Source of the DNA: a virus
Direction: 5' to 3' (one strand)
Virus record (IMG/VR): IMGVR_UViG_3300013099_000003
Location: 1-57,585 of that record
Length of the DNA stretch: 57,585 bases
The stretch's first letter is position 1; every line of letters begins with the position of its first letter. Positions 1,897-57,585 of this stretch are shown here, piece by piece. The translations under genes and the position numbers were made by a program. The notes beneath the pieces are model-generated. The model was not told where the DNA came from, did no database searches, and saw nothing but the letters and a program-made list of their open reading frames with translations.

Positions 1897-4800
1897 ATGG
1901 GATACTTTAGCGAAGACTTTAACGGATTCAATACGGAACCACAAGACTCAATCAGTATGGCCTCGGCTCGTAGTGAGGCTCATGTAGCAGAACGTGGGAC
2001 AACCATGGATATTCTCCATGACTTGTGGGCAGGAACTGGAGAAGCCTTTAAGTTAATAGGTGAGGGTACAGGCTTTGACAAGATGAAGTCTGCCGGAGAA
2101 TACATAGGCTCTACAGAATTCGCTAAGCCGGATACCTCGCAGTACTATGGTACCCAAGATAGACTAGGCAGAGTAGTTGATGGTATCTTTCAGGCAGCCC
2201 CACTGACCTTAGGTCTTGCTGGGACTACTGCCGTAGGTGCACTTGCTGGCCCGGTAGGAGCTGGTATGGCTCTTACTGCTGGCCTCAGTGCAGTTGGCAA
2301 AGGAACCTTCGATATATCTCTGGAGGAAATCCAGAAGGAGAGACCTGAGCTATCCTCTAAGGAGCAGTTTGATTATGCTCTTATTAATGCTGTGAGTGAG
2401 GTTGGATCCGAGGGACTAGGCTTCCTCCTTCCCTTTGGTATAGGTAAGTTAGCCGGTAAGGCTGGTTCCAAGGCAGTACTCAAGGCCTTAGTGGACTCTG
2501 GGAAGATGACAAGTAAGCAAGCTATAGGCTCCGTAGTTAAGGAGGTTGGTGCTAAGAATGTAATGACGGGCCTCTTCGGTGGTGCCGTAGCTGATGGTGC
2601 ATCCGAGGTAGGCAATGAGTTAGTTCAGGCTGCCAATAGAGAAGCTTATGGGATGGAGGGAGAGAAGGCTGATCTTATTGATCTCTTCTTGATCGGTAGT
2701 GCTCCGGGCGGTATCATTGCTGGTGGTACTATGGCAATGGATCAGGGAGTTAAGAGTAAGGTACAGAAGAGCCTAGAGGCTGGTCTTCAGAGTGAGTCCT
2801 TTGGTACTCGGCAGGCAACTGTTGATACTATTACTAGTGCATTATCCCAGATACATCCTGATGTTGGATCAGCATTCAAACAGGATCTCGGACAGAAGGC
2901 CTTAGTTGGTCCAGTGTCCTTGCAGGAGCCTGTAAGAACTCAGGAATCCGTAGTGGAGACTGAGATCCTTAATAAGCCAGAGGAAGTTCTAGCTGAGGTT
3001 GGGATACCAACCAAGGCTGATCCCTTAGGTACTGCTGAAGGAATGGATAGAGCAGACCTAGAGGATACTACTCTGGATTACTCTCAGACTCAGGAAGGCT
3101 TTCTTCCGGATGAACTAACAGCTCTAGAGTTGGAGAATCAGAAGTCTCTAGAGACACAGGAAACTGTAGACTCCTTCATGAAGAATGCTGAGAGATCCGT
3201 GATACCCATACAGAAGAGGGTAGTAACAACGGATGCCAAGGGCAACCAAGTAGAGACGATGGTGGATGGTACGATAGCTGAGACTAGTGTCCCCTTATAT
3301 GATGCCCTTATCCTTGATAACGCTAGAAGCCAAGCCATTAAGGAAGGCATGGAGGCAGTCCTAGTAGATGCTAATAAGTTATCCATGATGGCTGATTTGG
3401 ATGGAAGAGAGAAGTTACAGAAGAGTATAGCTAAGAGGCAGAAACAAATCAACAGTGAGGTACAAGAGCATGTTAAAGAGACTGAAGTTGTGGTTCCTAC
3501 GGAACAAGGAACAGTTGAAGGGATTGCTGAAGTTGTATCTGAAGAGGAAGTAAAGGTAGAGCCAAAGACTCCAGAGGTAATCGCTAAGGAAGTCTTAGAG
3601 GATACCGTTGTGCCTGAGGAAGTCCTTGCTGAACAGCCCGTGGAGCCTGTAGAGGCACCACCACAGCTCGTAGAGGAGGAAGTAATACCTGAGGTCATAG
3701 AGGAACCTGTAGGGCGTGTAGAGGAGGCTTACATATCTCCTGAGACTGATGTACCCATGGACGAGGAGCAGAGCACCTTAGCCATGGAATGGATGGATAA
3801 GGATATACCAGCAGATGATGCGATACTATTAGCTAAGAGGGCTACTCCGGTATCGGATGGCCCTGTCGAAGTGGAGGAATACAGGGATGGTAAGAAGTAC
3901 ACCGGAAGTAGATTCACAGATGGTTCAACTATTGAAGTTGGCAGAAGCACTAAAGGAAAGCAGTTCAAGGTATCTAAGGACGGTAAGGTCTACCGGGCGG
4001 GAAGCCGTAAAGCTGCGAGAGAAGGCATTGAAGGTAAGCGTGAGCTAGAGCTTTGGGAAGATAAGGTTCGAGAGAAGGCTGCTGAGAAGACCAGAGAGAA
4101 GCTGAGTGATAAGCAGAAGACTGAGATAGATGAATTCATAGTGGCTAACAGTGAGAGTGCTGAGGGCCCTAAACAGTATACTGAAGCATACCAGAAGGTT
4201 ACTAAAGGTATGAAGATGGACGACAAGATGGGCATGTTTGCTATGGCCCTAGGTGATGTAGCTCAGGGGCCTAAGGAATTGACTGCCGGGAACATAAGGG
4301 AGAAGATGCAGTCCTTAGCTAAGGCTGAAGAGAACACTACTGATACTGCTAAGATAGCTGATGAGGGTGGCAACGTAGCCATGGTCAGTACTGATACACT
4401 CTTCGAGTCACAGGAGAAGGCTGCCCAGAGTGAGCAGATGACTGAGACACAAGATGAGGACGTAGCATCCGAGTCATCTATGGAGGGTACTAAGGAAGAA
4501 GATGAGAGTACCTTAGCTACAACTGAGGATCCTACACAGTACACTCAGGAAGATAAGGGGAAGTATACCCTGAAGAAGATCTGGTATACCATTAGTGGCA
4601 AGAAGGTTGCTAAGAATAAGAAGGGGTCTGATGCAGTGGAGAGACTTGAGACTCCTGATGGTCGTTACGAAGTAGTCTTAGCTCCCCGGGAGAAGGGAGA
4701 GCCAGCTAAGGTACTCTTACTGAGGAACGGTGAGAATGCTGGGCCAGCCTTTAATAATCCTGATGAGGCTATGGAGTTCGCTAAGATGTCTGATGAGTAT

Positions 4801-7800
4801 GATCTTAGTCCAGATGCTGGTAGTCTTAAGGACTCAATGACTCCTATTGATACTACTATGGAGCGTGATAACCCTGATGTATTCCATGAGAGGTTCAAAG
4901 CATGGGGCCATAATATGGCTAGGGTACATAAGGCATCTAGGGAGATTACCAATATCATTAAGAAGGAAGGTGCAACCCCTGAGAATATTAAGGCCCTGAG
5001 GGATATTAAGGAGCTTCGTAGTGAGATCATGGCTCAGAGGGATTTAGTTATGGGTTCTGTCTTGAGAGACTCTAGTGCCTTAGATACAATAGGGGAAGTC
5101 GATGACATCCTTAAGGCTGCCAATGCTGGTAGGTATAATAATGAATTAGGGACAGAGGACTACAGTCTTGAAGGTGAGGCTATAGCTAATCAGTGGAGGA
5201 AGCAGGACGCAAGGCAGTTAGGTATCGTAAGGTTGCTGGATATGGAGAACAGAAGTCCAGCTAATGAGGATGCCCTTCAGAGTCTACTGAGGGAACGGGA
5301 TGAATTTGAGGTAGATGCTGCTAACTTGAAAGCTAAGTTCCCGGATGGATTATCCTTGCTGGAGTCTGTAGCTAATGAGGTAAGCTCTGGGAAAGTAGAG
5401 AAGTCCTTAGCTAAGATGCTGCTTGCTAATGTTCCTCATGAGAAACTGAAGGCCCTCCAAGTAGTAATGGGCCATAAGAATAGCCATAAGGATGGGCTCA
5501 TAACCTTAAGGAAGGACGTACTACATACCACTAGGTTGCATGAGGTAGTCCATGGTATCACCGTAGCTGAGATGGCAGGTAATAAGGAACTGAATGATAA
5601 GGTTACTAAGTTGAGGAGAGAGGTGAGGGACTATGCCTCGAAGAAGAACTTCCTGAGTCCAGCAGATATCACAGCTCTAAAGGCTCTAGAGACTTCTGAA
5701 GACTTCGTTCAGTCAGAGTTCTCTATAAAGAATAAGGTTGGCCAGAGAGCTTATGGTCTCCTGAATAATAAGGAATTCCTGAGTATGGCATTCGCTAACC
5801 CTGAGTTCCAGAGTATGCTTAAAGGAATTAAGGTTACGGAGAAGAGGAGTCTATGGGATAAGTTAGTGGACTTCATAGGTAATGCCTTAGGACTTAAGAA
5901 GGGTGAGTATAATATGCTTAGCGAAGTACTGACCTTAGGTACTGAGATAGCACAAGCTAAGAGAACTAAGAAGACTCTAACGGAGGAGATGGAAGCTGAC
6001 TTCCCGGTAGACACGGAGAAGGCTACTGCTGAAGTGATGGCTGGTAAGGGCCCTAAGGCTAAGATGGTGACAGGCCTGAAGGAACAGCTGAAGAACATTA
6101 AGAATCTGGCAGAGCATGTAGCTAAGCCGGTGAGTGATATGCTCCTTGAGCTATCTCCTAAGTTACATGGAAATCTCATGAAATTTGAGAGTAAGCTCAT
6201 AAGAAAACAGAAGGAGTACAGTACCAAGGCTGATCCTTTCATGAGGTGGTATAAGAGCCTCTCTGAAAGTGAGCAGACTAGGTATGACTTTGCACTCTTT
6301 AATAGTAACACTAAGCAGAACCAAGAGATTATCAAAGAGATTCCTAAGGAGGCTTATGCTCCCATGAAGGAGATTCTGGATGATCTAAGGAAGAGGCAGG
6401 AGGAAGTAGGCCTCGGTGGTACTCAGAAGGACTTCTACTTTCCGAGGAGAGTGGATGATGTGGTAGGTCTCATGGATCATCTGCTGAAGGATGAGGAGAT
6501 GAAGGGCCCTATTGGATACGCTATGAATCAAGAGGCTAAGAGGTTAGGAGTATCCGTACTGACTGAGGATCAGAAGGCACAGGTAGTAACCGATATGCTT
6601 CAAGCAGGACACTTCAGACAGTTGCCGAGACCCGGAGCTAGTAAGCAGAGGACAATCCCCTTTGTTACTGCTGAGACCAAAGGTTTCTATAGCAATGCAT
6701 CGGAGAGCCTCTTAGGACATATCTTTGAGATGAATGAGAAGATAGGACAGAGGGAATTCATAGGAGGTTCCACAAGGAAGGCTGATATACAGACCTTAAT
6801 GACTAAGTTTAAGGCCATAGAGGGAATGGAGGAAGGTATACCTAGGGAACTAGCTATGGCTGAGTATGATGCTATGGCTGGGAAGCTTGAGGATCTTGAG
6901 GGAGACTTAAGTAATAGGTTGGGTTCCTTAATAAGTGAGGAGATGGGTACTAGAAGTGGTGAGGATCAGCAGGCTGTTACAGATCTTATCAATGCTAGGC
7001 TGAGACAGAAGGGAGCTCACGGTGTCATGGATGCCGTAAGGAACGTAGGCTACATAGCTACAATGGGTAATTTCTTAAGTGCACTGACACAGCTTGGTGA
7101 TATCCCAATACTCTTCTATGCTCATGGGATCAACACGGATTCTATGGGTGCTGTCAAGGATGCCTTCTCGGACGTATTCAAGATTGCTAAGAGGGAGCTT
7201 ACCGGAAAGGGTGGGCCTACTGGAGCATTCGTAGAGGAAGCAGACTTCACTAATCAACTGAGGGAATTCTCCCAAGGTAAGATAACTAATGAATGGGTAG
7301 AGAAAGCCTTTAAGTACAGTGGCTTGAAGTTCACGGATCTTATAGGTAAGGAAGCATTCATGAAGGCTGCCCATAGGAAGTATCAGAGGGCCGGAGAGAA
7401 GGAAGGTTTCATGAAGAAGTATGAGCCATTCTTTGGGAAGGATACGGAGAACGTATGGGATGAGATGCAGACCGGGAAGAAGACTAATGATGTCATGACA
7501 GTCCTCATCTCGGAGCTGAGTGAGTTCCAACCTGTGACACTGAGTCAGCAGTCCAAGGGTTATCTAGGGGCTGGCAATATGAGGATGCTGTATATGCTTA
7601 AGACCTTCACCCTAAGAGCTACCTCAGCAGCAATGCGAGAGGGAGCCAAGGAGATGAAGAAGGGGAATTATGCTAAGGGAGCCATGAAGGTCTCTAGCAT
7701 CCTCATGATCTACGCAGCAGCTGGTGCAGGAGCTGATGAACTGAAGGACCTCATAAGGGGTAAAGATAGTACCTTCACAGATAACACCATGGATAACCTC

Positions 7801-13862: not shown

Positions 13863-14291
13863 ATGCTTAAGAAATTACTAATAACCATGATGATGGTAGC
13901 CACTATGGTACTAACATCCTTCGCAGCAGATACGAAGCCAGTGGAGATAACCTTCACATGGTCAGGATACTTAGAGCAATGCCCTGAGTGTACTGACTAT
14001 CAAATATTCTTTTACGTAGACACAGATGAGAATGGGCCATACGCTATGATACCAGTGACGGATGATACCTACACTGTACCTTATATAGATGATGGACTCT
14101 CTCATAATTACTGGATACGAGCAGAAGATCATGGGGAACTCAGTGGGAACTCCACTGTAATTACAGTAGACCCATGGTATCCTACCCCGGAGAATCCTCC
14201 GTTACCTGAGACTCCTGAGCCTCCACCTGATAAGCCGGAGGGGATGAAGTACAGACTAATCTTTGAGAATGTAGTGATAGAACAGATGTAG
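13863..14291 (+). CDS. small protein with N-terminal signal-like helix and Pro-rich C-terminus (142 aa)
   Basis: MLKKLLITMMMVATMVLTSFAAD...; last gene of the plus-strand block. Confidence 0.6.
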   Translation: MLKKLLITMMMVATMVLTSFAADTKPVEITFTWSGYLEQCPECTDYQIFFYVDTDENGPYAMIPVTDDTYTVPYIDDGLSHNYWIRAEDHGELSGNSTVITVDPWYPTPENPPLPETPEPPPDKPEGMKYRLIFENVVIEQM

Positions 14292-14296
14292 CAAAG

Positions 14297-14326
14297 AAGG
14301 CCCTATAGAATTAACTATAGGGCCTT
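14297..14326. terminator. bidirectional stem-loop terminator between the convergent blocks
   Basis: aaggccctatag (14297-14308) / aattaa loop / ctatagggcctt (14315-14326): a 12-bp perfect stem with short T/A runs on both sides. Confidence 0.6.
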
Positions 14327-14330
14327 TGCT

Positions 14331-14342
14331 GTCTCTAGAGAC
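14331..14342. repeat. GTCTCTAGAGAC palindrome copy (intergenic, 4 nt after the terminator stem)
   Basis: Exact 12-mer read directly. Confidence 0.95.
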
Positions 14343-14464
14343 TTCCTAGAGATTCTTCTTAGGCCATGAAGGTATACAGTAGACTCGTGTAGGCTCTATC
14401 CGTCTCCCCTTCGCACATGTAAGATAACAGTTCTTATCGGCCTCCTCACATGCACAGATGATGA

Positions 14465-14677
14465 TCACCCCCTTCTTTCTTTTATCTTCCATTGTCTCAG
14501 TTTGAACCTCACTTGTCTCTTTGATACTGGATTAGCAATATGATCTATCTGACAAGCTAGATATATGTACTTACCTTCGTATGTAGCTAGGAGCCTATAG
14601 TAACTTCTACCATCTAGTGGTTGCAACCGTTCATCCTTAATGAAAAGGAACCCTTCCTGCTCCAATACCTCCTTCAT
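14465..14677 (-). CDS. hypothetical protein, 70 aa
   Basis: ORF track; last gene of the minus-strand block. Confidence 0.6.
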   Translation of the reverse strand: MKEVLEQEGFLFIKDERLQPLDGRSYYRLLATYEGKYIYLACQIDHIANPVSKRQVRFKLRQWKIKERRG

Positions 14678-14688
14678 TCCGGCCCTCC

Positions 14689-15162
14689 TTAACCTTCGGC
14701 ATAACCTAGCCCTCTCAGTACGAAGTCCTCGGCTGATCTACATTCCCTGAAAGACCACAGTGGTCCTGTGAAATGCTTAGTACGACCCTCAGGTGTCTCG
14801 ATTACGAACCTGAGTTCTTCCTCGAACTTCATCGCATCCCGGATAACATCAATACGTAACAATGATACATCACCTCCTAGATCTATACTCCCCTCCTTGT
14901 TTACCTGCTTATGTATCCAAGTTACTGCAGTCCTTAACTCGGACTCCTCTCCATCCTTAGACCTAATGGCCCGTGGGCTCATGATGTTCCCCTTTAGGGC
15001 AGCAACAGCCTCATCATGGGCTAACTGAGTATTCTGTATCCTTCTATCAATATCCCGCTGAGCATTCTGCTGGGCTTCCAGCACAGACTCCTTAAGATTT
15101 ACCTTAGCCGCAGCTGCCTCCTCCTGTAATCTCACAGACATCATGGCTTTCTGTGTAAACAT
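14689..15162 (-). CDS. hypothetical protein (about 158 aa; start uncertain)
   Basis: The tracked ORF 14689..15363 overlaps the reductase 3' end by 260 nt. An internal ATG (15162, 15144 or 15141) is more plausible. Confidence 0.5.
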   Translation of the reverse strand: MFTQKAMMSVRLQEEAAAAKVNLKESVLEAQQNAQRDIDRRIQNTQLAHDEAVAALKGNIMSPRAIRSKDGEESELRTAVTWIHKQVNKEGSIDLGGDVSLLRIDVIRDAMKFEEELRFVIETPEGRTKHFTGPLWSFRECRSAEDFVLRGLGYAEG

Positions 15163-24770: not shown

Positions 24771-24937
24771 CTCTGGTTAAGACCACAGCCACCCATAGAT
24801 ACCATACCACATACCTCAAGATCCTCATGGATACACCCCTTACATGCTTCCTCATCTTTAGGTACATCCACTAAGATGTACCCCTCTCTAGTACCAACGA
24901 ACTTCTCCATCCTCTCTACCTTCTCACCCTTATTCAT
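24755..24937 (-). CDS. hypothetical Cys-containing protein, 60 aa
   Basis: ORF track. Confidence 0.55.
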   Translation of the reverse strand: MNKGEKVERMEKFVGTREGYILVDVPKDEEACKGCIHEDLEVCGMVSMGGCGLNQRWEKE

Positions 24938-25412
24938 ACTTAACCCTCACCTTTAGTAATAGTTTAGAGGCTCTCTGTCTACTGATACCTACCTCAACTG
25001 CTGCCTCAGATTGGGTATAGCCTTGCATCATACACCCAATGAGGTCTCTCGTAGTTCCTTCCTCACCCTCCAGCATCCTCTCCATATCCAGTCGAGCATC
25101 TACTGCTGCCTCATGACTCTCATGGGAAGCCTCAAGGTATACGGCATGATCCCTCATGCCATTCATATTGTATTCCTTCAGTACTACTCTCTGGATATAG
25201 TGTTGCAATCTTCCGAGGATTCTTCCGTACAGGTAGGTACTTAAGGAAGCTCCCCTCTTTCCATCATACTTATCTATGTCCTCCGTTATGATCAGCCATG
25301 CTTGTGATTCAAGATCATCCCACTCTACATTAGGGTACTGTTTGTATAACCTAGCTACAACACCACTAATTAACCTCTCATAATCTTTATGTCTCAATGT
25401 GTGTCTCCCCAA
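24930..25412 (-). CDS. sigma-70-family (ECF-sized) RNA polymerase sigma factor
   Basis: Region 2-like DDLESQAWLIITEDIDKYD...YLYGRI and region 4 HTH YTQSEAAVEVGISRQRASKLL. Confidence 0.75.
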   Translation of the reverse strand: MGRHTLRHKDYERLISGVVARLYKQYPNVEWDDLESQAWLIITEDIDKYDGKRGASLSTYLYGRILGRLQHYIQRVVLKEYNMNGMRDHAVYLEASHESHEAAVDARLDMERMLEGEEGTTRDLIGCMMQGYTQSEAAVEVGISRQRASKLLLKVRVKYE

Positions 25413-39489: not shown

Positions 39490-40221
39490 CTATGCGAAAT
39501 GCTTAGTGGCCATTTTCAGGAGATCTGCTTGAACATCGGCTTTCTCTGTATCATCGGCAATATCCAGCAGGGAGCCGAGCTGAGCAATGAGATCTCTCAT
39601 TTCTACGGTAATATCAAGGTTATTCACACAGATGGCTGTGGTGAGCTTATGGGCTTCGAGAATATCCGCCTGCTCAGTCATCTTATCCGCAGCAGTCTGC
39701 AATCCCTCACAATGCCTTCGGACGGCCTCAATAGGAACTTCCTCAGTCGTACATCTCTTCAGCAAATCACACCTTGCACCTACCTTGAACTGCTCAGGAT
39801 AGAGAGAAGAGGAGAGACCGAAGCTCAGGATCTTTGCGATAGTTCCGGCATAATCCCACATCCGTCTTGTCTCTGCCCAGCTACTCCATTGAACCTTTCC
39901 GTCTTTCACGATATCGAAGGAAGCACCCTGACGATTCTTCCCTGTGAGTGGTAAGGTGTCCAGTTCAGCATGGATATGGTTAGCGAGTACACCTTTCAGG
40001 TAGGTACCGTTCTTCTTTATGGATTCCTTAGAGGTATCCATCTCAATCTGGGTGAGATCCACACGTTCCATCAGTATGGAGACAGTTTGGTCCCAGACTA
40101 TCGAATCATTCTTCTTTACGGTTCTTCCAGCAGTCGTACTTTTATCACTTGCTTTCATCGCAGCTACTACGTCTTCACCTTTAATGATGCTGTAGGTTAT
40201 GTCGTCACTTTTCTTACTCAT
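39490..40221 (-). CDS. hypothetical early protein, 243 aa
   Basis: ORF track; isolated gene bracketed by palindrome copies. Confidence 0.7.
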   Translation of the reverse strand: MSKKSDDITYSIIKGEDVVAAMKASDKSTTAGRTVKKNDSIVWDQTVSILMERVDLTQIEMDTSKESIKKNGTYLKGVLANHIHAELDTLPLTGKNRQGASFDIVKDGKVQWSSWAETRRMWDYAGTIAKILSFGLSSSLYPEQFKVGARCDLLKRCTTEEVPIEAVRRHCEGLQTAADKMTEQADILEAHKLTTAICVNNLDITVEMRDLIAQLGSLLDIADDTEKADVQADLLKMATKHFA

Positions 40222-40370
40222 AATAATACCCCTTTGTTCTGGTTTAGGTAAAATCCCCGGTTATCCGGTGTCTCTAGAGACTTCAGATAGCCTGAAGCCT
40301 TAATTTCAGCATTCTTCCGCCTAGATTGGGCAGCCTGTACATCCGATCTCTTGATACGGATAATAGTCAC
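40218..40370 (-). CDS. basic mini-protein, 50 aa, GTG start (below the ORF-track cutoff)
   Basis: SD gaggagg lies 6 nt before GTG 40370. My own translation: (M)TIIRIKRSDVQAAQSRRKNAEIKASGYLKSLETPDNRGFYLNQNKGVLL. The stop forms an ATGA overlap with the 243-aa gene. It contains the palindrome copy at 40270-40281 in the SLET frame. Confidence 0.5.
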   Translation of the reverse strand: MTIIRIKRSDVQAAQSRRKNAEIKASGYLKSLETPDNRGFYLNQNKGVLL

Positions 40371-40710
40371 AGTACACCTCCTCTAAGTTTATGTAGAACA
40401 GCCACACTAATCCATTGTTTTCCATAGTTACTATCATATTACCACCTCTCAGTTCTTGTATATACCCAGTGTACTACCATAAGTATAAGATTTACGATTC
40501 TCTCTTGCATAATTCCTCCAAGGTTATAGGTTAAGGAATGCTCAGGTTAGTGCTACGGTTCCTGAGCAGACCTTAATCGGTATCCTCATTGCTATTATGT
40601 GCTCCATGCAGCTATAGTTCACCCTCAGGCAGCCTGTCGTATCCCAGCTAGGATATCCTCCGCATTCTTAAGTCGGAATTCAGGTAATCAGGTGCTATAA
40701 TCAATCGGTT

Positions 40711-40722
40711 GTCTCTAGAGAC
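40711..40722. repeat. GTCTCTAGAGAC palindrome copy (ORF-poor region)
   Basis: Exact 12-mer. Confidence 0.95.
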
Positions 40723-41276
40723 TCCGAATAATCAGTATGGACTCTTCATTGGGAGGCCCATTTGCTCCCATCACTACACTTGTTTATCGTGCCAAGTTCA
40801 CCTTAAGATATTTAGTACCCCTCTCAGTCGGGTGTAGACGTTCGGCTAGGTTTCCTAAGGGTTGCCCCTTTATCCCAACCTTTCCCGGGAGATCGTACTC
40901 CGGAAGGTCGTCAATGCTCTCTATTCAAGCCCATTTGGGTGATTCCCGTTCCCTATAGTTCCGGATTCCTAGCGGTATCTTGTAGACTACCCTTTCAGCG
41001 TATCCTATGATTCTTTCGACTCTCCCGTAAGCTCTCCGAGGTTTCCGTTGGCTACTCTCTTGAGAGAATCTTCTATCCCTCTGGCGAGTGGCCATCCGCC
41101 TCAGTGAACCCCTTTCAGGTCTCGCTGTCCGACTTGCTCTGTCAGGTTGGCTTGCGTATTTATTGTTTTTAGGTGCTCCTTTTAGATTGCCATGTTTTCC
41201 TTGTGGTGTCTAGTGTTTATCTTGTCGAGGTCTCTACTTCCCTCAATAGTTTACTCTTTGGCACCCTTTTGTCTGT

Positions 41277-41288
41277 GTCTCTAGAGAC
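41277..41288. repeat. GTCTCTAGAGAC palindrome copy (ORF-poor region)
   Basis: Exact 12-mer. Confidence 0.95.
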
Positions 41289-41563
41289 TTAGCCCAGATC
41301 GAAGTAGGTACCCCGGAGTCATCTCAGGATTGGAATCCGGCTGAGCCATGGAGGCCCCCGGGGAGTGGAGGTAGCCCCTCCGTATCTTGTAGCCATTTCT
41401 GAGAATAAGTACCTGCTCCATCCCTCTGCTACACCTTCCAGAAATACCTATGCACAAACCTTGCACACTTCGCACAAGCAGGAGAATGAACCCCATCCCT
41501 GACATTAAGCACCAATAAAGAGCCTAGGAATACTATAGGAATCTCCATGACTTAGACTAGGGG

Positions 41564-41592
41564 TTGACAAAAGGGCTTCGAGATGGTATAAC
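41564..41592 (+). promoter_or_regulatory. sigma-70-type promoter in front of the plus-strand (packaging/structural) block
   Basis: ggggTTGACA (41564-41569), 17-nt spacer ending TGg, then TATAAC (41587-41592). Confidence 0.65.
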
Positions 41593-41671
41593 TACATAAG
41601 AGCAAGAGACTTAAAGGTGGGAATCTAAAAGATCCGGGGGAACCTAGGGTCTTTCTTTAGGTCTAACCTAT

Positions 41672-41748
41672 CTACTTATACTTTACTACTTATACTTAGG
41701 TAATACTATAAAGGAATATATAAAGGAATAACCTAAGGCTAACCTAGG
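41672..41748 (+). repeat. cluster of short direct repeats in the AT-rich leader
   Basis: tacttatactt at 41673-41683 and 41687-41697; tataaaggaata in perfect tandem at 41707-41718 and 41719-41730; taacctaagg at 41729 and taacctagg at 41740. Confidence 0.85.
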
Positions 41749-41759
41749 AGGACTAAAGA

Positions 41760-42557
41760 TTGTCTGAAGTTATCGTAAGAAAACCTAAGCCACCCTTAAC
41801 AGATCAAGAGAAGTACCAAGTAATACTAAAGTACTCTGAAGGTGTTCCAGTTACTCAGATAGCCTCTGAAGTCTCTAGAGACATAGGGATTATAAATAAG
41901 CTAATCAGTAAGACCCACAATGGCATGACGGCAGTAAAGGAAACCAATGCACTTCTCCAAGCTACCCATAAGGGAGCCGTAACACAGTACTACGGGAAGA
42001 ACCCATCCAAGTTCATAACGACTGCCTTCCTAGCCGAGATAGATACCTTGGCTGAGATCTATGCTTACTACTTTGCCCAGACAGGGGACAATAGATTTGC
42101 CCTCATACAAAGTGGGATGGATATGGGAATCCCTAAGAACATGCGTAAGAATACCAAGGACTACGTATATAAGATCCGTGGTCAATTCCTCAGAGATATC
42201 CCACAGGTCAAGGATATCATAAAGCTAGTCCACGATAAGAGGATCAAGGAATATCATATAGAGAAGCCCCAGATCCAGATGGAACTGGTAGCCCAGATAG
42301 AGGAACTGAAGGAAGCAGTAAAGGATGATCCTAAACAACGGGTGAACCTCTTGAGAGCTGTAGAGATGCTAGGCCGTACAATCGGATCCTTCACGGACAG
42401 AGTACAAGTTGAGGAGGTTGATGCTAAGAGTGGCTTAGAGATTCTTATGGAGAGAGCTAAAGGAGAAGCTAAATTGACGTATGTCCCCGAGGAGGAGCAT
42501 GGCGAAGAAGACTCAGAAGCAGAAGCTCCTGGAGACTGCCCAGATATATTACAATGA
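41760..42557 (+). CDS. small-terminase-like protein with HTH (TTG start)
   Basis: SD aggagg lies 8 nt before TTG. HTH-like GVPVTQIASEVSRDIGIINKLI. Immediately upstream of the large terminase. Confidence 0.5.
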   Translation: MSEVIVRKPKPPLTDQEKYQVILKYSEGVPVTQIASEVSRDIGIINKLISKTHNGMTAVKETNALLQATHKGAVTQYYGKNPSKFITTAFLAEIDTLAEIYAYYFAQTGDNRFALIQSGMDMGIPKNMRKNTKDYVYKIRGQFLRDIPQVKDIIKLVHDKRIKEYHIEKPQIQMELVAQIEELKEAVKDDPKQRVNLLRAVEMLGRTIGSFTDRVQVEEVDAKSGLEILMERAKGEAKLTYVPEEEHGEEDSEAEAPGDCPDILQ

Positions 42558-43902
42558 TAAACCTATGGAATTCTTCACTGATATCCTCCAAGTTGAACTG
42601 GATGAACAACAGGAGGAATTCCTCTCAGCAGTCGTAGGTGGCTGCAGAATATGTTGCAAGTCAAGCAAGGGTACAGGTAAGACGTTCCTGATCGCAGGAC
42701 TAACTCTCTGGTTTCTTACCTGTCACCCTAGAGTAACCTTAAGGACTCTGAGCCCCTCTTATGATCAACTCATAGATGTCTACATGAGGGAGGTCAATCT
42801 ACATCACGGAAGGATGCTTCCAGAGTTCGCAGACTTAGTAGAGATAAAGTATGATAAGATAACTCTGAAGGATGATCCTACGAACATGGCAGTCTGTGTG
42901 AGTGCTAAGAGTACGAAGAGGGAGAGACAGTCAGGAGTCCACTCATTTACTCAGGTGTACCTCTTTGATGAGGGCTCTGGTATCCCAGACGATACATACA
43001 GTAATGCAATCGGATCCTTAGGAACTGCCCATAAGGGTGGCTACGTAATTGTCGTCAGTAATCCGGAGAGGGGCTCTGAACCTTTCTACACTGATCTCTT
43101 CACTAAGAAGCCTAAGGGTTGGCAGCTATTTACCTTCACAGCCTTCAAGTCCAAACAGACTACCCCGGACTTCATAGAGGAGATAAGGGAACTGTACGGC
43201 GAAGATAGTGATGAATGGCGTGTAATGATCATGGGAGAATTCCCCAGATCAGATGGATCTATGTATATTCCAATGAGTCTCGTAGAAGAAGCCTCGGGAC
43301 GTATTGTAGCCATGCCTTTGTATATCCGTCATCCAATCATTATAGGTGCTGACATAGCGAGAAGCAAGACAGGTGATAGTACAGTCTTCGTAGTTAGACA
43401 AGGTGCTAAGATCTTAGATATGTATATGATACAAACGGATGATACTATGGAATCCGTCACTATGCTACGGGATATCTATAAGTCAGTAACAGCCTCAGCA
43501 ATCTTCATGGATGCTGATGGTGTCGGTGGACCTGTAGCAGATAGATGTAGAGAGGTAGGCTTACCAGTCTATGATGTTAGAAGTGGACTACCTTCCTCGG
43601 ATCCTCGGCAGTATGCTAATATGCGTACTCAGTTATGGGGAGAGATGAGGGAGTGGTTAGTAACAGGAAGCATACCAGATCATCATGAACTTAAGAGAGA
43701 GCTAGGGACAATGACATGGGGTTACTCAAGGAAGATGGCAGAGCAACTGACAGCAAAGAGGAAGCTAACAGATGCACAAGGGAAGAAGATAAGTAGCCCC
43801 GACCATGCAGATGCCTTAGCTTATACCTTCTTTGATAGTACGCTCTCCATGACTAGAAGAAATACTAAAGCAAGGCCAGTGAGGAAAGCAGCCTGGATAT
43901 AG
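42502..43902 (+). CDS. terL: terminase large subunit
   Basis: Walker A SSKGTGKTF, Walker B VYLFDEGSG, nuclease-domain acidic motifs IGADIA and FMDADGVGG. Start at the ATG with SD gaggagg. Confidence 0.85.
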   Translation, partial: AKKTQKQKLLETAQIYYNDKPMEFFTDILQVELDEQQEEFLSAVVGGCRICCKSSKGTGKTFLIAGLTLWFLTCHPRVTLRTLSPSYDQLIDVYMREVNLHHGRMLPEFADLVEIKYDKITLKDDPTNMAVCVSAKSTKRERQSGVHSFTQVYLFDEGSGIPDDTYSNAIGSLGTAHKGGYVIVVSNPERGSEPFYTDLFTKKPKGWQLFTFTAFKSKQTTPDFIEEIRELYGEDSDEWRVMIMGEFPRSDGSMYIPMSLVEEASGRIVAMPLYIRHPIIIGADIARSKTGDSTVFVVRQGAKILDMYMIQTDDTMESVTMLRDIYKSVTASAIFMDADGVGGPVADRCREVGLPVYDVRSGLPSSDPRQYANMRTQLWGEMREWLVTGSIPDHHELKRELGTMTWGYSRKMAEQLTAKRKLTDAQGKKISSPDHADALAYTFFDSTLSMTRRNTKARPVRKAAWI

Positions 43903-49229: not shown

Positions 49230-49304
49230 TGCGGAGTATTTCAGAGGTAGAAAACCAGCCTCATAAGCTGGAAGTCGTGGGTTCGAGTCCCTCCTCCGCT
49301 CCCA
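49230..49304 (+). tRNA. tRNA with anticodon CAT (Met, or Ile if lysidine-modified), CCA encoded
   Basis: Hand-folded. Acceptor TGCGGAG/CTCCGCT (1:72 T-T mismatch). D arm TTTC-AGAGGTA-GAAA. Anticodon arm CCAGC-CTCATAA-GCTGG. Variable loop AAGTC. T arm GTGGG-TTCGAGT-CCCTC (one mismatch). Discriminator C, then CCA. Confidence 0.75.
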
Positions 49305-56819: not shown

Positions 56820-57585
56820 TGAGGGGATGCTCAGTGGAGAGGCTCTCAGAACTAAGAGGGATGAAGTGGATACCGGCACAGGAATTCAGAGGCTTGATCA
56901 AGGTCGGACTGAACATCTAAGCCGGGGTGACTTCGTAAACTTCTATGATGATCTTGGTATCTCCACAACTCAGTGGCAAGCTGATGAGATGAGAGCACAA
57001 GAGGCTGCCTTCCAAGGAGCCAAAGCTGATCAAGAGGGAGTCTTAAGTTCTGCCCAAGGTAAGTATGAGAGTGCTGAGGGGGATATAGCAGATCAACAGG
57101 CTCTCTTAGATAAGGCCTATAAGGATATGCCTGAGTTCCAGACTGCTCTAGATGATTCATGGGGAGAGCATAAGAATACTCTTACTAACTTCTCTGTAGT
57201 CGATAAGAATAATAATGTCCTAGGAAGTTACTACCTCCCTGATAAGGTTGGGGAGAACTTCATGGGACAGCCCGGGGTCTGGGGTAATAAGGTAGATGGC
57301 ACCTTTTATGTAGGGACAAAGGGAGGAGAGGCCTATGAGGCCTTGATGACTAGCTTGGATACTGGAGCACTAGAGTATAGAACTCAGTATATGTCTCAGG
57401 CTGGACCAGCAATAGCTAAGCAATTAGGTATTGGTCTGTCTTCCTTAGGTGATGCATCCTCTAAGTTACAAGCAGCTAGAACGGATGTTGAACTATATGG
57501 TGGCCAAGTTGATACAGCCCGGAGAGACCTTGGGAACACAGTAGCTGCGAGAGATCAACAGTGGGCAGATATTCACGGTGAGTAC
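56809..57585 (+). CDS. virion-module protein, 5' part (open to the window end; continues at 124..186 after circularisation)
   Basis: ATG 56809 with SD aaggaggg 8 nt upstream. 259 codons are open to the last base, so it is absent from the ORF track (no stop in the window). Confidence 0.7.
   Translation, partial: MPPNEGMLSGEALRTKRDEVDTGTGIQRLDQGRTEHLSRGDFVNFYDDLGISTTQWQADEMRAQEAAFQGAKADQEGVLSSAQGKYESAEGDIADQQALLDKAYKDMPEFQTALDDSWGEHKNTLTNFSVVDKNNNVLGSYYLPDKVGENFMGQPGVWGNKVDGTFYVGTKGGEAYEALMTSLDTGALEYRTQYMSQAGPAIAKQLGIGLSSLGDASSKLQAARTDVELYGGQVDTARRDLGNTVAARDQQWADIHGEY
57463..57585. repeat. Second copy of the 123-bp terminal overlap
   Basis: Identical to 1-123 by direct comparison. Confidence 0.95.

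Follow-up and report, generated by a model that had tools for sequence, protein, structure and literature searches.

A putative composite early/late control region in the conserved non-coding gap between two divergent gene blocks of a metagenomic phage

The window, meaning the whole 57,585-nucleotide (nt) stretch of IMG/VR virus record IMGVR_UViG_3300013099_000003 analyzed here, amounts to a complete phage genome in the form of a circular assembly. This report concerns 40511–41759, which is the largest non-coding stretch of the ~57.5-kb genome. The gene-free region sits precisely at the boundary between two blocks: the leftward genes run from 40510 down to 14689, and the rightward genes run from 41760 past the window end and on to 14291. 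The products of the leftward block include a T7-type primase-helicase, PolA, a gp2.5-like single-stranded DNA-binding protein (SSB), an exonuclease, a ligase, CobT/CobS-like proteins, and a putative sigma factor. The rightward block opens with the gene of a 265-amino-acid (aa) protein, whose sole family match is a weak HTH_23 hit (E = 0.047), and continues with a PF03237 large terminase gene, whose product has only ~30% identity to that of any isolate phage. The phage is taken to be lytic; its predicted gene products point to T7-like replication, an SU10-like portal and adaptor, and a sigma factor of its own. The gap is read here, with a probability of roughly 0.6, as a composite non-coding control region for early and late genes, in which divergent promoters, a folded leader, and a GC-rich core are combined.

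Relatives of the window phage were gathered through the large terminase, which gave ~66 relatives of at least 46% identity, all of them metagenomic and none from an isolate. The DNA comparison covers 13 distinct lineages that include this stretch (terminase identity 62–89%). Lineages carry L-numbers, L007 is the closest relative, and W denotes the window sequence. Every relative lineage with a contig across this place, 11 in total, has a gene-free gap of 1.1–1.8 kb there, between the last of the leftward early genes and the gene that precedes the terminase gene. The sequence of the gap diverges fast: blastn aligns only W with L007, in patches of 70–80%. With nhmmer, W is linked to L040 and L009 in the right part only, and L001, L009, and L040 match one another across most of the gap. 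Nucleotide searches of the region against isolate phages gave no match, a viral contig collection searched with the two flanking proteins gave nothing, and a genome collection scan returned no contig beyond those already in the set of relatives. Homologs of the 243-aa early protein at the left edge were found in W, L007, and four distant short contigs only, and the W clade could not be enlarged.

On the right side of the gap, the hexamers of a predicted sigma-70-type promoter facing the terminase genes (Table 1) are 17 nt apart, inside the 16–18 nt range of sigma-70 promoters, and are kept in relatives. The block GGGGTTGACAAA...TGCTATATA is conserved in L007, L009, and L040, and in further lineages this position is occupied by extended -10 elements of the form TGnTATAAY. 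On the left side, the block AGAGTAAACTATTGAG has a -10 element, TAAACT, at 41253–41248 and a -35 element, CAGACA, 16 nt upstream on the minus strand. Its pattern AGAGTAnACT..TGAG is conserved across clades and unique in the genome. A stem-loop follows 2–4 nt past the conserved TGAG in 8 of 10 lineages, with stem sequences that differ. Because the block is conserved across clades and has this stem-loop nearby, it is taken as a putative early promoter together with the 5' end of the early transcript. The leftward -10 block was also considered as a repeated promoter of a phage sigma factor, and this was rejected since it has a single occurrence in the genome. The 160-aa protein encoded at 24930–25412 (minus strand) is probably such a sigma factor: it scores 28.5 bits for the Sigma-70 region 2 domain (cut-off 24) and has a weak helix-turn-helix at its C-terminus. 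The promoter motif of this protein was not found.

Between the two predicted promoters lies the GC-rich core, ~110 bp with a GC content of 0.60, the GC maximum. The core is unique in the genome. Its profile HMM identifies it in 13 of the 13 lineages covering the stretch and in 0 of 120 unrelated viral loci, which had been retrieved with a loose DNA pattern of the core and none of which was true by profile search. Two exact-block searches added nothing new. The pentamer GGTAG is invariant across the family, and the invariant sequence with a variable spacer suggests that the core is recognized as DNA by a protein. Most likely the core would be a packaging or terminal site beside the terminase genes; alternatively or additionally, it may belong to a replication origin. 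The motif GGTAG...AGAAT was tried as a repeated promoter and rejected, as it occurs once. ARAGORN finds no tRNA or tmRNA in the core, single-sequence folds vary by lineage, and each pairing register tried by eye suits some lineages only.

The left side of the core holds the motif (C)TGCCCCCGG/GTC, a candidate genome end or packaging cut site. Three independent contigs of relatives, from different projects (L006, L248, and L050), start here, at alignment columns 38, 37, and 46, and thus within 9 columns of each other. Of the contigs of at least 9.9 kb, 11 cross the whole gap and 10 end within it or at its edge; two further contigs start ~80 nt off the motif, and the remaining starts are scattered. 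The candidate end lies ~450 nt upstream of the putative small terminase gene, and cos or terminal-repeat boundaries are usually found a few hundred bases upstream of terminase genes. The contig ends are suggestive only of a terminus at this motif. As to the window itself, positions 1–123 and 57463–57585 are identical and the source contig has 57,603 nt, which is consistent with a 141-nt assembler overlap; the unique genome is therefore ~57,462 bp and fits a circular assembly. Two observations in relatives concern the same neighborhood. L005 apparently has two core-like elements, one of the common type at 6523–6672 and a second ~220 nt further right (GGGCACTAGCGCCCCCC...CAGTAGCC), which is similar to the single core of L019. 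Short tandem or dispersed repeats occur beside the core or the rightward promoter of relatives, as GGAGGGCTTTT arrays and as five copies of CCCTATAGGAACCTCC (L044 at ~4700–4770, just left of the core; L015 at 1–260), and contig L045 breaks within such a short-repeat array.

A replication origin as the main function of the region, with divergent promoters, a protein-bound core, iterons, and an AT-rich unwinding stretch past the rightward promoter, is an unlikely reading, although several features point to it. The primary origin of T7 is built of promoters followed by an AT-rich region, and the window phage has T7-like replisome genes. The skew analysis proposed in an earlier note on this DNA finds that AT skew changes sign at the core (~41400) and that the cumulative GC skew has its minimum in this region. 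The GC content drops to 0.29 at 41650–41749 within the rightward leader, and three iteron-like GCACA repeats lie between the core and the rightward promoter, with a similar CGCACA run in L007 and different short repeats at the same place in other lineages. However, the skew switch coincides with the switch in gene orientation and is hence confounded, and the repeats, which are short and weak, lack conservation across lineages. Moreover, nothing links the core to a replication protein, and the contig ends at the core suit a packaging or terminal site better.

The leader of the presumed leftward transcript would extend from a start at ~41242 to the first open reading frame (ORF) at 40510, a span of ~730 nt. 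Its parts differ in kind (Table 1). The purine-rich spacer in the middle has an alignment-fold z near 0 on both strands, and the structural signal is found in the promoter-distal ~350 nt. In the W/L007 alignment of 40511–40870, the column-shuffle z ranges from -4.2 to -5.6 for the minus strand, compared with -3.2 to -4.4 for the plus strand. The consensus fold of the minus strand contains 59 pairs, 15 of them compensatory, at -51.1 kcal/mol, as against 47 pairs, 10 of them compensatory, at -42.9 kcal/mol for the plus strand. The 7-bp stem that the earlier note had placed at 40543–40570 exists and is kept in L007, but its position is 40540–40567 (H1); in L007 the arms are GCUUAGAAGG/CCUUCUAAGC at the same place, with changes from C-G to U-A and from G-C to A-U. 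The outer helix of the branched domain shows two compensatory pairs. The parallel L001/L040 clade shows the same pattern in the ~430 nt that lead up to its first early gene, with z of -4.5 to -9 and 23–28 compensatory pairs (23 of 67 pairs in one fold). An alignment check for compensatory substitutions, which the earlier note had proposed, was thus positive in both clades. The hairpins may act in RNA, in the processing, stability, or read-through of the early message.

One element previously suspected to be a plus-strand promoter falls within this predicted structure. The extended -10 sequence TGcTATAAT (TGCTATAAT) is present at 40693–40701 on the plus strand, but it sits in the predicted outer helix of the branched domain, and the change from TATAAT to TATGAT in L007 is matched by a change in the partner arm. 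This compensation favors a minus-strand helix over a promoter. Of the other hairpins listed earlier, GGGAG/CUCCC (40751–40769) is kept in L007, whereas three have stems of ~3 bp as judged by eye and fall in a stretch rich in indels relative to L007. As a separate observation, the motif GG(C/G)AATCTAAAAG occurs at 41179–41197 and 41613–41631, ~15–60 nt downstream of each divergent promoter and on the transcribed strand in both. This arrangement is reminiscent of paired sites in divergent early transcripts; L007 has an altered leftward copy. Long-range pairing between the two places was considered and rejected, as the L007 change is uncompensated.

The same evidence bears on readings in which the RNA itself is the functional product. 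In one of them, quite improbable in our judgment, the leftward transcript of ~0.7–0.9 kb would be a structured RNA with a role of its own throughout the family, evolving so fast that its helices alone are kept, and perhaps serving host takeover or anti-defense at the very start of infection; the core (with invariant CUACC on the minus strand) would then be part of an RNA or of a new kind of packaging or origin signal. A slightly poorer candidate is one self-standing structured RNA of ~0.8–1.2 kb on the minus strand, like GOLLD or ROOL in kind and not an mRNA leader. It would agree with the compensatory changes in two clades, with the conserved gap length, and with the purine-rich minus strand. 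The pyrimidine bias of the plus strand had been noticed before and is confirmed, with purine fractions of 0.40 in 40511–41240 and 0.37 in 40723–41276 compared with 0.57–0.58 for coding strands elsewhere. On the other hand, the structure signal is limited to the ~350 nt by the first ORF, the middle is signal-free and rich in indels, folding energy is no better than that of shuffles, and the sequence is not alignable between clades. There is no terminator before the early ORFs, and no terminator-like site was found on the minus strand over 41245–40511. The supposed abundance of GAAA loops on that strand is not borne out: 7 are observed and 7.2 +/- 2.4 are found in shuffles, so that the GAAA hairpin list is mostly a by-product of purine richness.

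Covariance models point in the same direction. The scan suggested earlier, made with Rfam 15 (GOLLD, ROOL, introns, ribozymes, riboswitches, and small RNAs), gave no match in the gap at the gathering threshold; in the whole window, a match was obtained solely for tRNA-Met (49230–49304), which is also its only tRNA. A permissive scan of 40100–41900 returned snoRNA noise only (E > 0.7), and the gaps of ten relatives have no Rfam match. The likeness to GOLLD, ROOL, and group I/II introns is thus one of size range and phage context only, with no covariance-model match at gathering or permissive thresholds. Elsewhere in relatives, a manA RNA lies beside a tRNA cluster (L044, 13195–13389) and a group I intron is present (L019, 8492–8721), neither of which occurs in the window. 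LAGLIDADG-like ORFs are found in the capsid region of L040 (11433–12203) and L044 (10957–11733), and none in the window. Of the large structured RNA proposed in the earlier note, therefore, the ~350 compensated, minus-favored nucleotides and their parallel in the second clade stand, while the middle of the stretch has no signal and many indels.

The hairpins and palindromes could instead act in DNA, whether as cruciforms, as single-strand structures, or as operators close to a genome end that are used in genome entry, replication, or packaging. In favor of this, the local hairpins can form on either strand, copies of the palindrome are found within or next to them (in L007 one is in the loop of H1), and the region may be terminal. 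The minus-strand signal is stronger, however, 9 of the 59 minus-strand pairs are G-U, and longer-range helices such as 40611–40629 with 40693–40703 are more plausible in RNA; action at the DNA level is improbable on this account.

The palindrome GTCTCTAGAGAC is dispersed through the window, with 34 copies of at most one mismatch against 0.5 expected, a ~60-fold excess. Exact copies at 40270, 40711, 41277, and 41871 delimit segments of 429, 554, and 582 nt, as described previously, and other sites include 3144, 11400, 14331, 39425, 39449, 48938, and 48962. The palindrome is always flanked by A or T; 13 of the 34 copies are found in 35–42 kb, and most lie inside genes. A GTCTC..GAGAC-type palindrome, in lineage-specific variants (CTCTCTAGAGAG, GTCTCCGGAGCC, and GTCGTTGGAGAC), aligns in all relatives at the place of 41277–41288. 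The palindrome may serve as an operator, as a nick site, or as a site for primase. Its use as a general promoter, with GAGACA as the -35 element, was rejected by eye for want of a consistent -10 element downstream, and an apparent polarity (A after 26 of 34 copies) can be accounted for by the A-richness of coding strands. Where both blocks converge (14291–14689), a long perfect hairpin (GCAAAGGCCCTATAG...CTATAGGGCCTTCTTTGC) comes after the palindrome copy at 14331 and looks like a bidirectional terminator.

The coding content of the region was found to differ from the earlier note at its borders. No credible ORF had been recognized in 40371–41563; this holds from 40511 onwards, whereas 40371–40510 is coding, as judged from its conserved ORFs of 23 and 38 aa, so the non-coding stretch starts at 40511. 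It also reaches 41759 and does not end at 41563. In L007 the 23-aa ORF has equal length and stop with 18 of 23 residues identical, and it has no family match. The 38-aa ORF is conserved in length, sequence, and stop, including the C-terminal GLVWL.FINLEE.YCDYYPYQEIG.TGCPI, and the 50-aa ORF is conserved from end to end, with 80.8% identity across 52 aa. The DNA that is near-identical between W and L007 coincides with the overlap of the 38-aa and 50-aa ORFs. It is very unlikely that the whole stretch is a string of such very small early peptides. That idea gains from the three conserved ORFs at the left edge and from a three-codon ORF with a Shine-Dalgarno (SD) sequence (AAGGAAAACAUGGCAAUCUAA; 41192–41212, minus strand) in the promoter-proximal leader, which L007 keeps as AUGGCAAGCUAA. 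Right of 40510, however, no small ORF retains its start, stop, and sequence in L007, and the indels are of a non-coding kind.

Within 40371–41563 only two ORFs reach 60 aa, as had been listed: 40737..40958 (plus strand) and 41281..41505 (minus strand), the second of which does end at the TAG inside the palindrome copy at 41277–41288. No ORF is common to the relatives in any frame across 40511–41759, the six-frame comparison gives only short matches of equal strength on both strands, the W/L007 indels are not multiples of three, and the ORFs of the gap have no family match in Pfam or PHROG. The minus frames are filled with stops, as had been remarked; each of the six frames has 17–30 stops, with TAA, TAG, and TGA present in every one. 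Pseudogenes or genes in a non-standard code, which would be compatible with the two ORFs of 73–74 aa and several of 30–56 aa, can therefore be dismissed as barely credible: decayed genes are rejected because no relative has an intact gene in the gap and the matches, indels, and ORFs are as just described, and recoding is no explanation for frames that contain all three stop codons.

Taken as a whole, the gap is neither a single giant RNA nor a set of dead genes. In the composite control region proposed here, the strong host-type promoter on the right would drive the putative small terminase gene, the large terminase gene, and the structural genes through an AT-rich leader. The single-copy core, at the switch in strand composition, would be a packaging or terminal site and/or an origin site recognized by a protein. 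To its left, a palindrome copy and the weak but conserved leftward promoter would set the start of the early transcript. This transcript would carry a stem-loop, a spacer of ~280 nt, and ~350 nt of hairpins, followed by the ORFs of 23, 38, and 50 aa and the 243-aa gene.

Several points weigh against this proposal. Both promoters and the leader are predictions from sequence. The leftward promoter agrees with the sigma-70 consensus at only 8 of 12 positions and is absent from the standard scan list. The leaders of the W clade and the L001/L040 clade are not alignable with each other, and covariation was assessed from only two sequences per clade. Single-sequence folding of the four segments against dinucleotide shuffles gave z = -1.34, -0.57, +1.49, and -0.22. 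The local leader hairpins fold on the plus strand too, which leaves room for hairpins at the DNA level. For the core, RNAalifold on a 14-sequence alignment gave no pairs, and the role suggested for it is drawn from its position and three contig ends. These ends could stem from assembly trouble at a GC-rich palindromic motif or from strain variability, and the window contig itself assembled as a circle.

Table 1. Position of predicted and conserved features at the non-coding gap and its borders (window coordinates)
Feature	Position	Strand	Remarks
243-aa early gene	39490–40221	-	adjoins 50-aa ORF
50-aa early ORF	40218–40370	-	GTG start, SD GGAGGTG; translationally coupled to 243-aa gene
38-aa early ORF	40321–40437	-	50-nt overlap with 50-aa ORF in a different frame
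23-aa hydrophobic early ORF (MQERIVNLILMVVHWVYTRTERW)	40439–40510	-	SD GGAGGAA; first ORF of early operon
Promoter-distal leader, conserved hairpin set	40511–40870	-	~350 nt; from W/L007 alignment folding
Hairpin H1	40540–40567	-	GCUCAGG/CCUGAGC, extended by UUAAG/CUUAA
Branched domain	40611–40703	-	outer helix 40693–40703 with 40611–40629
Hairpin UAUCC/GGAUA	40640–40655	-	inside branched domain; four consecutive pairs changed in L007, pairing kept
Hairpin UCCG/CGGA	40659–40677	-	inside branched domain
GTCTCTAGAGAC copy	40711–40722		within leader; kept in L007
Variable purine-rich spacer	40871–41154	-	~280 nt; large W/L007 indels, not multiples of three
Promoter-proximal leader	41155–41247	-	~90 nt almost identical in W and L007; 5' stem-loop 41245–41225
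Putative leftward (early) promoter	41248–41275	-	CAGACA, 16 nt, TAAACT
GTCTCTAGAGAC copy	41277–41288		between leftward promoter and core; position conserved family-wide
GC-rich core	41300–41412		plus strand CCCCGGAGTC ... GGTAGCCCC ... GAGAAT; single copy
Candidate genome end or packaging cut site	41308–41320		left side of core; relatives' contigs begin there
GCACA repeats, three copies (minus TGTGC)	41450–41480		9–11 nt spacing; iteron-like
Predicted rightward promoter	41564–41592	+	TTGACA, 17 nt, (TGg)TATAAC; sigma-70-type
Rightward leader	41593–41759	+	first ~55 nt conserved, then AT-rich with short tandem repeats
265-aa gene	41760–42557	+	directly upstream of and overlapping large terminase gene; putative small terminase by position only
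Large terminase gene	42481–43902	+	PF03237

In kind, the region resembles the left end or concatemer junction of T7. As Dunn and Studier reportedly described in 1983, this part of T7 holds a terminal repeat, the promoters A1–A3, and the RNase III site R0.3 ahead of gene 0.3. In both phages, ~1 kb of gene-free DNA lies beside a genome end (presumed in the present case), host-type early promoters are followed by a structured leader and then by small early genes, short repeat arrays are nearby, and a T7-like replisome is encoded. In contrast, early and packaging genes diverge in the window phage, whereas all T7 genes have one direction, and the window phage has a sigma factor and no phage RNA polymerase. 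There is no sequence similarity between the two. New features are the sequences themselves, the divergent arrangement, and the core motif. In lambda, cos consists of cosQ, cosN, and cosB just upstream of the small terminase gene. The core is comparable in being a conserved, GC-rich, single-copy site that precedes the terminase genes by a few hundred bases and at which contigs of relatives begin. It differs in having divergent promoters on either side and in that the contig starts vary by as many as 9 columns.

In podophages of the LUZ24-like and tf type, two gene blocks run toward each other from the genome ends, the direct terminal repeats are short, and consensus nick sites are dispersed (PMC3517423). 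If the ends of the window genome lie in the gap, its map likewise becomes two convergent blocks read inward, and a short motif is dispersed through both genomes. The palindrome of the window occurs on both strands, whereas the nick sites of tf are on one strand only, and the large terminase of the window phage is only ~30% identical to that of any isolate. The phiEco32/7-11/SU10 group (Kuravirus-like) encodes a phage sigma factor, and in 7-11 early sigma-70 promoters lie at the extreme right genome end (PMC8948821). The window phage shares with this group the SU10-type portal and adaptor domains (seen in relatives), a putative phage sigma factor, and early promoters beside a presumed genome end; with a terminus at 41308–41320, the early promoter would lie ~60 nt from one end, as in 7-11. 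The differences are a genome of ~57 kb in place of 77 kb, other replication genes, and a leftward block that is unique and not a repeated phage-sigma motif.

These results map a putative control region for a phage family that is known from metagenomes only. They assign testable positions to the predicted promoters of the early and the rightward transcript, to the first micro-ORFs of the early block, to a leader structure that covaries, and to a candidate genome end. Should the motif at which contigs start prove to be the true terminus, linear maps could be oriented for every genome of the family. Should the leader hairpins serve as signals for processing or read-through, the region would be a compact case of RNA structure outlasting alignable sequence.

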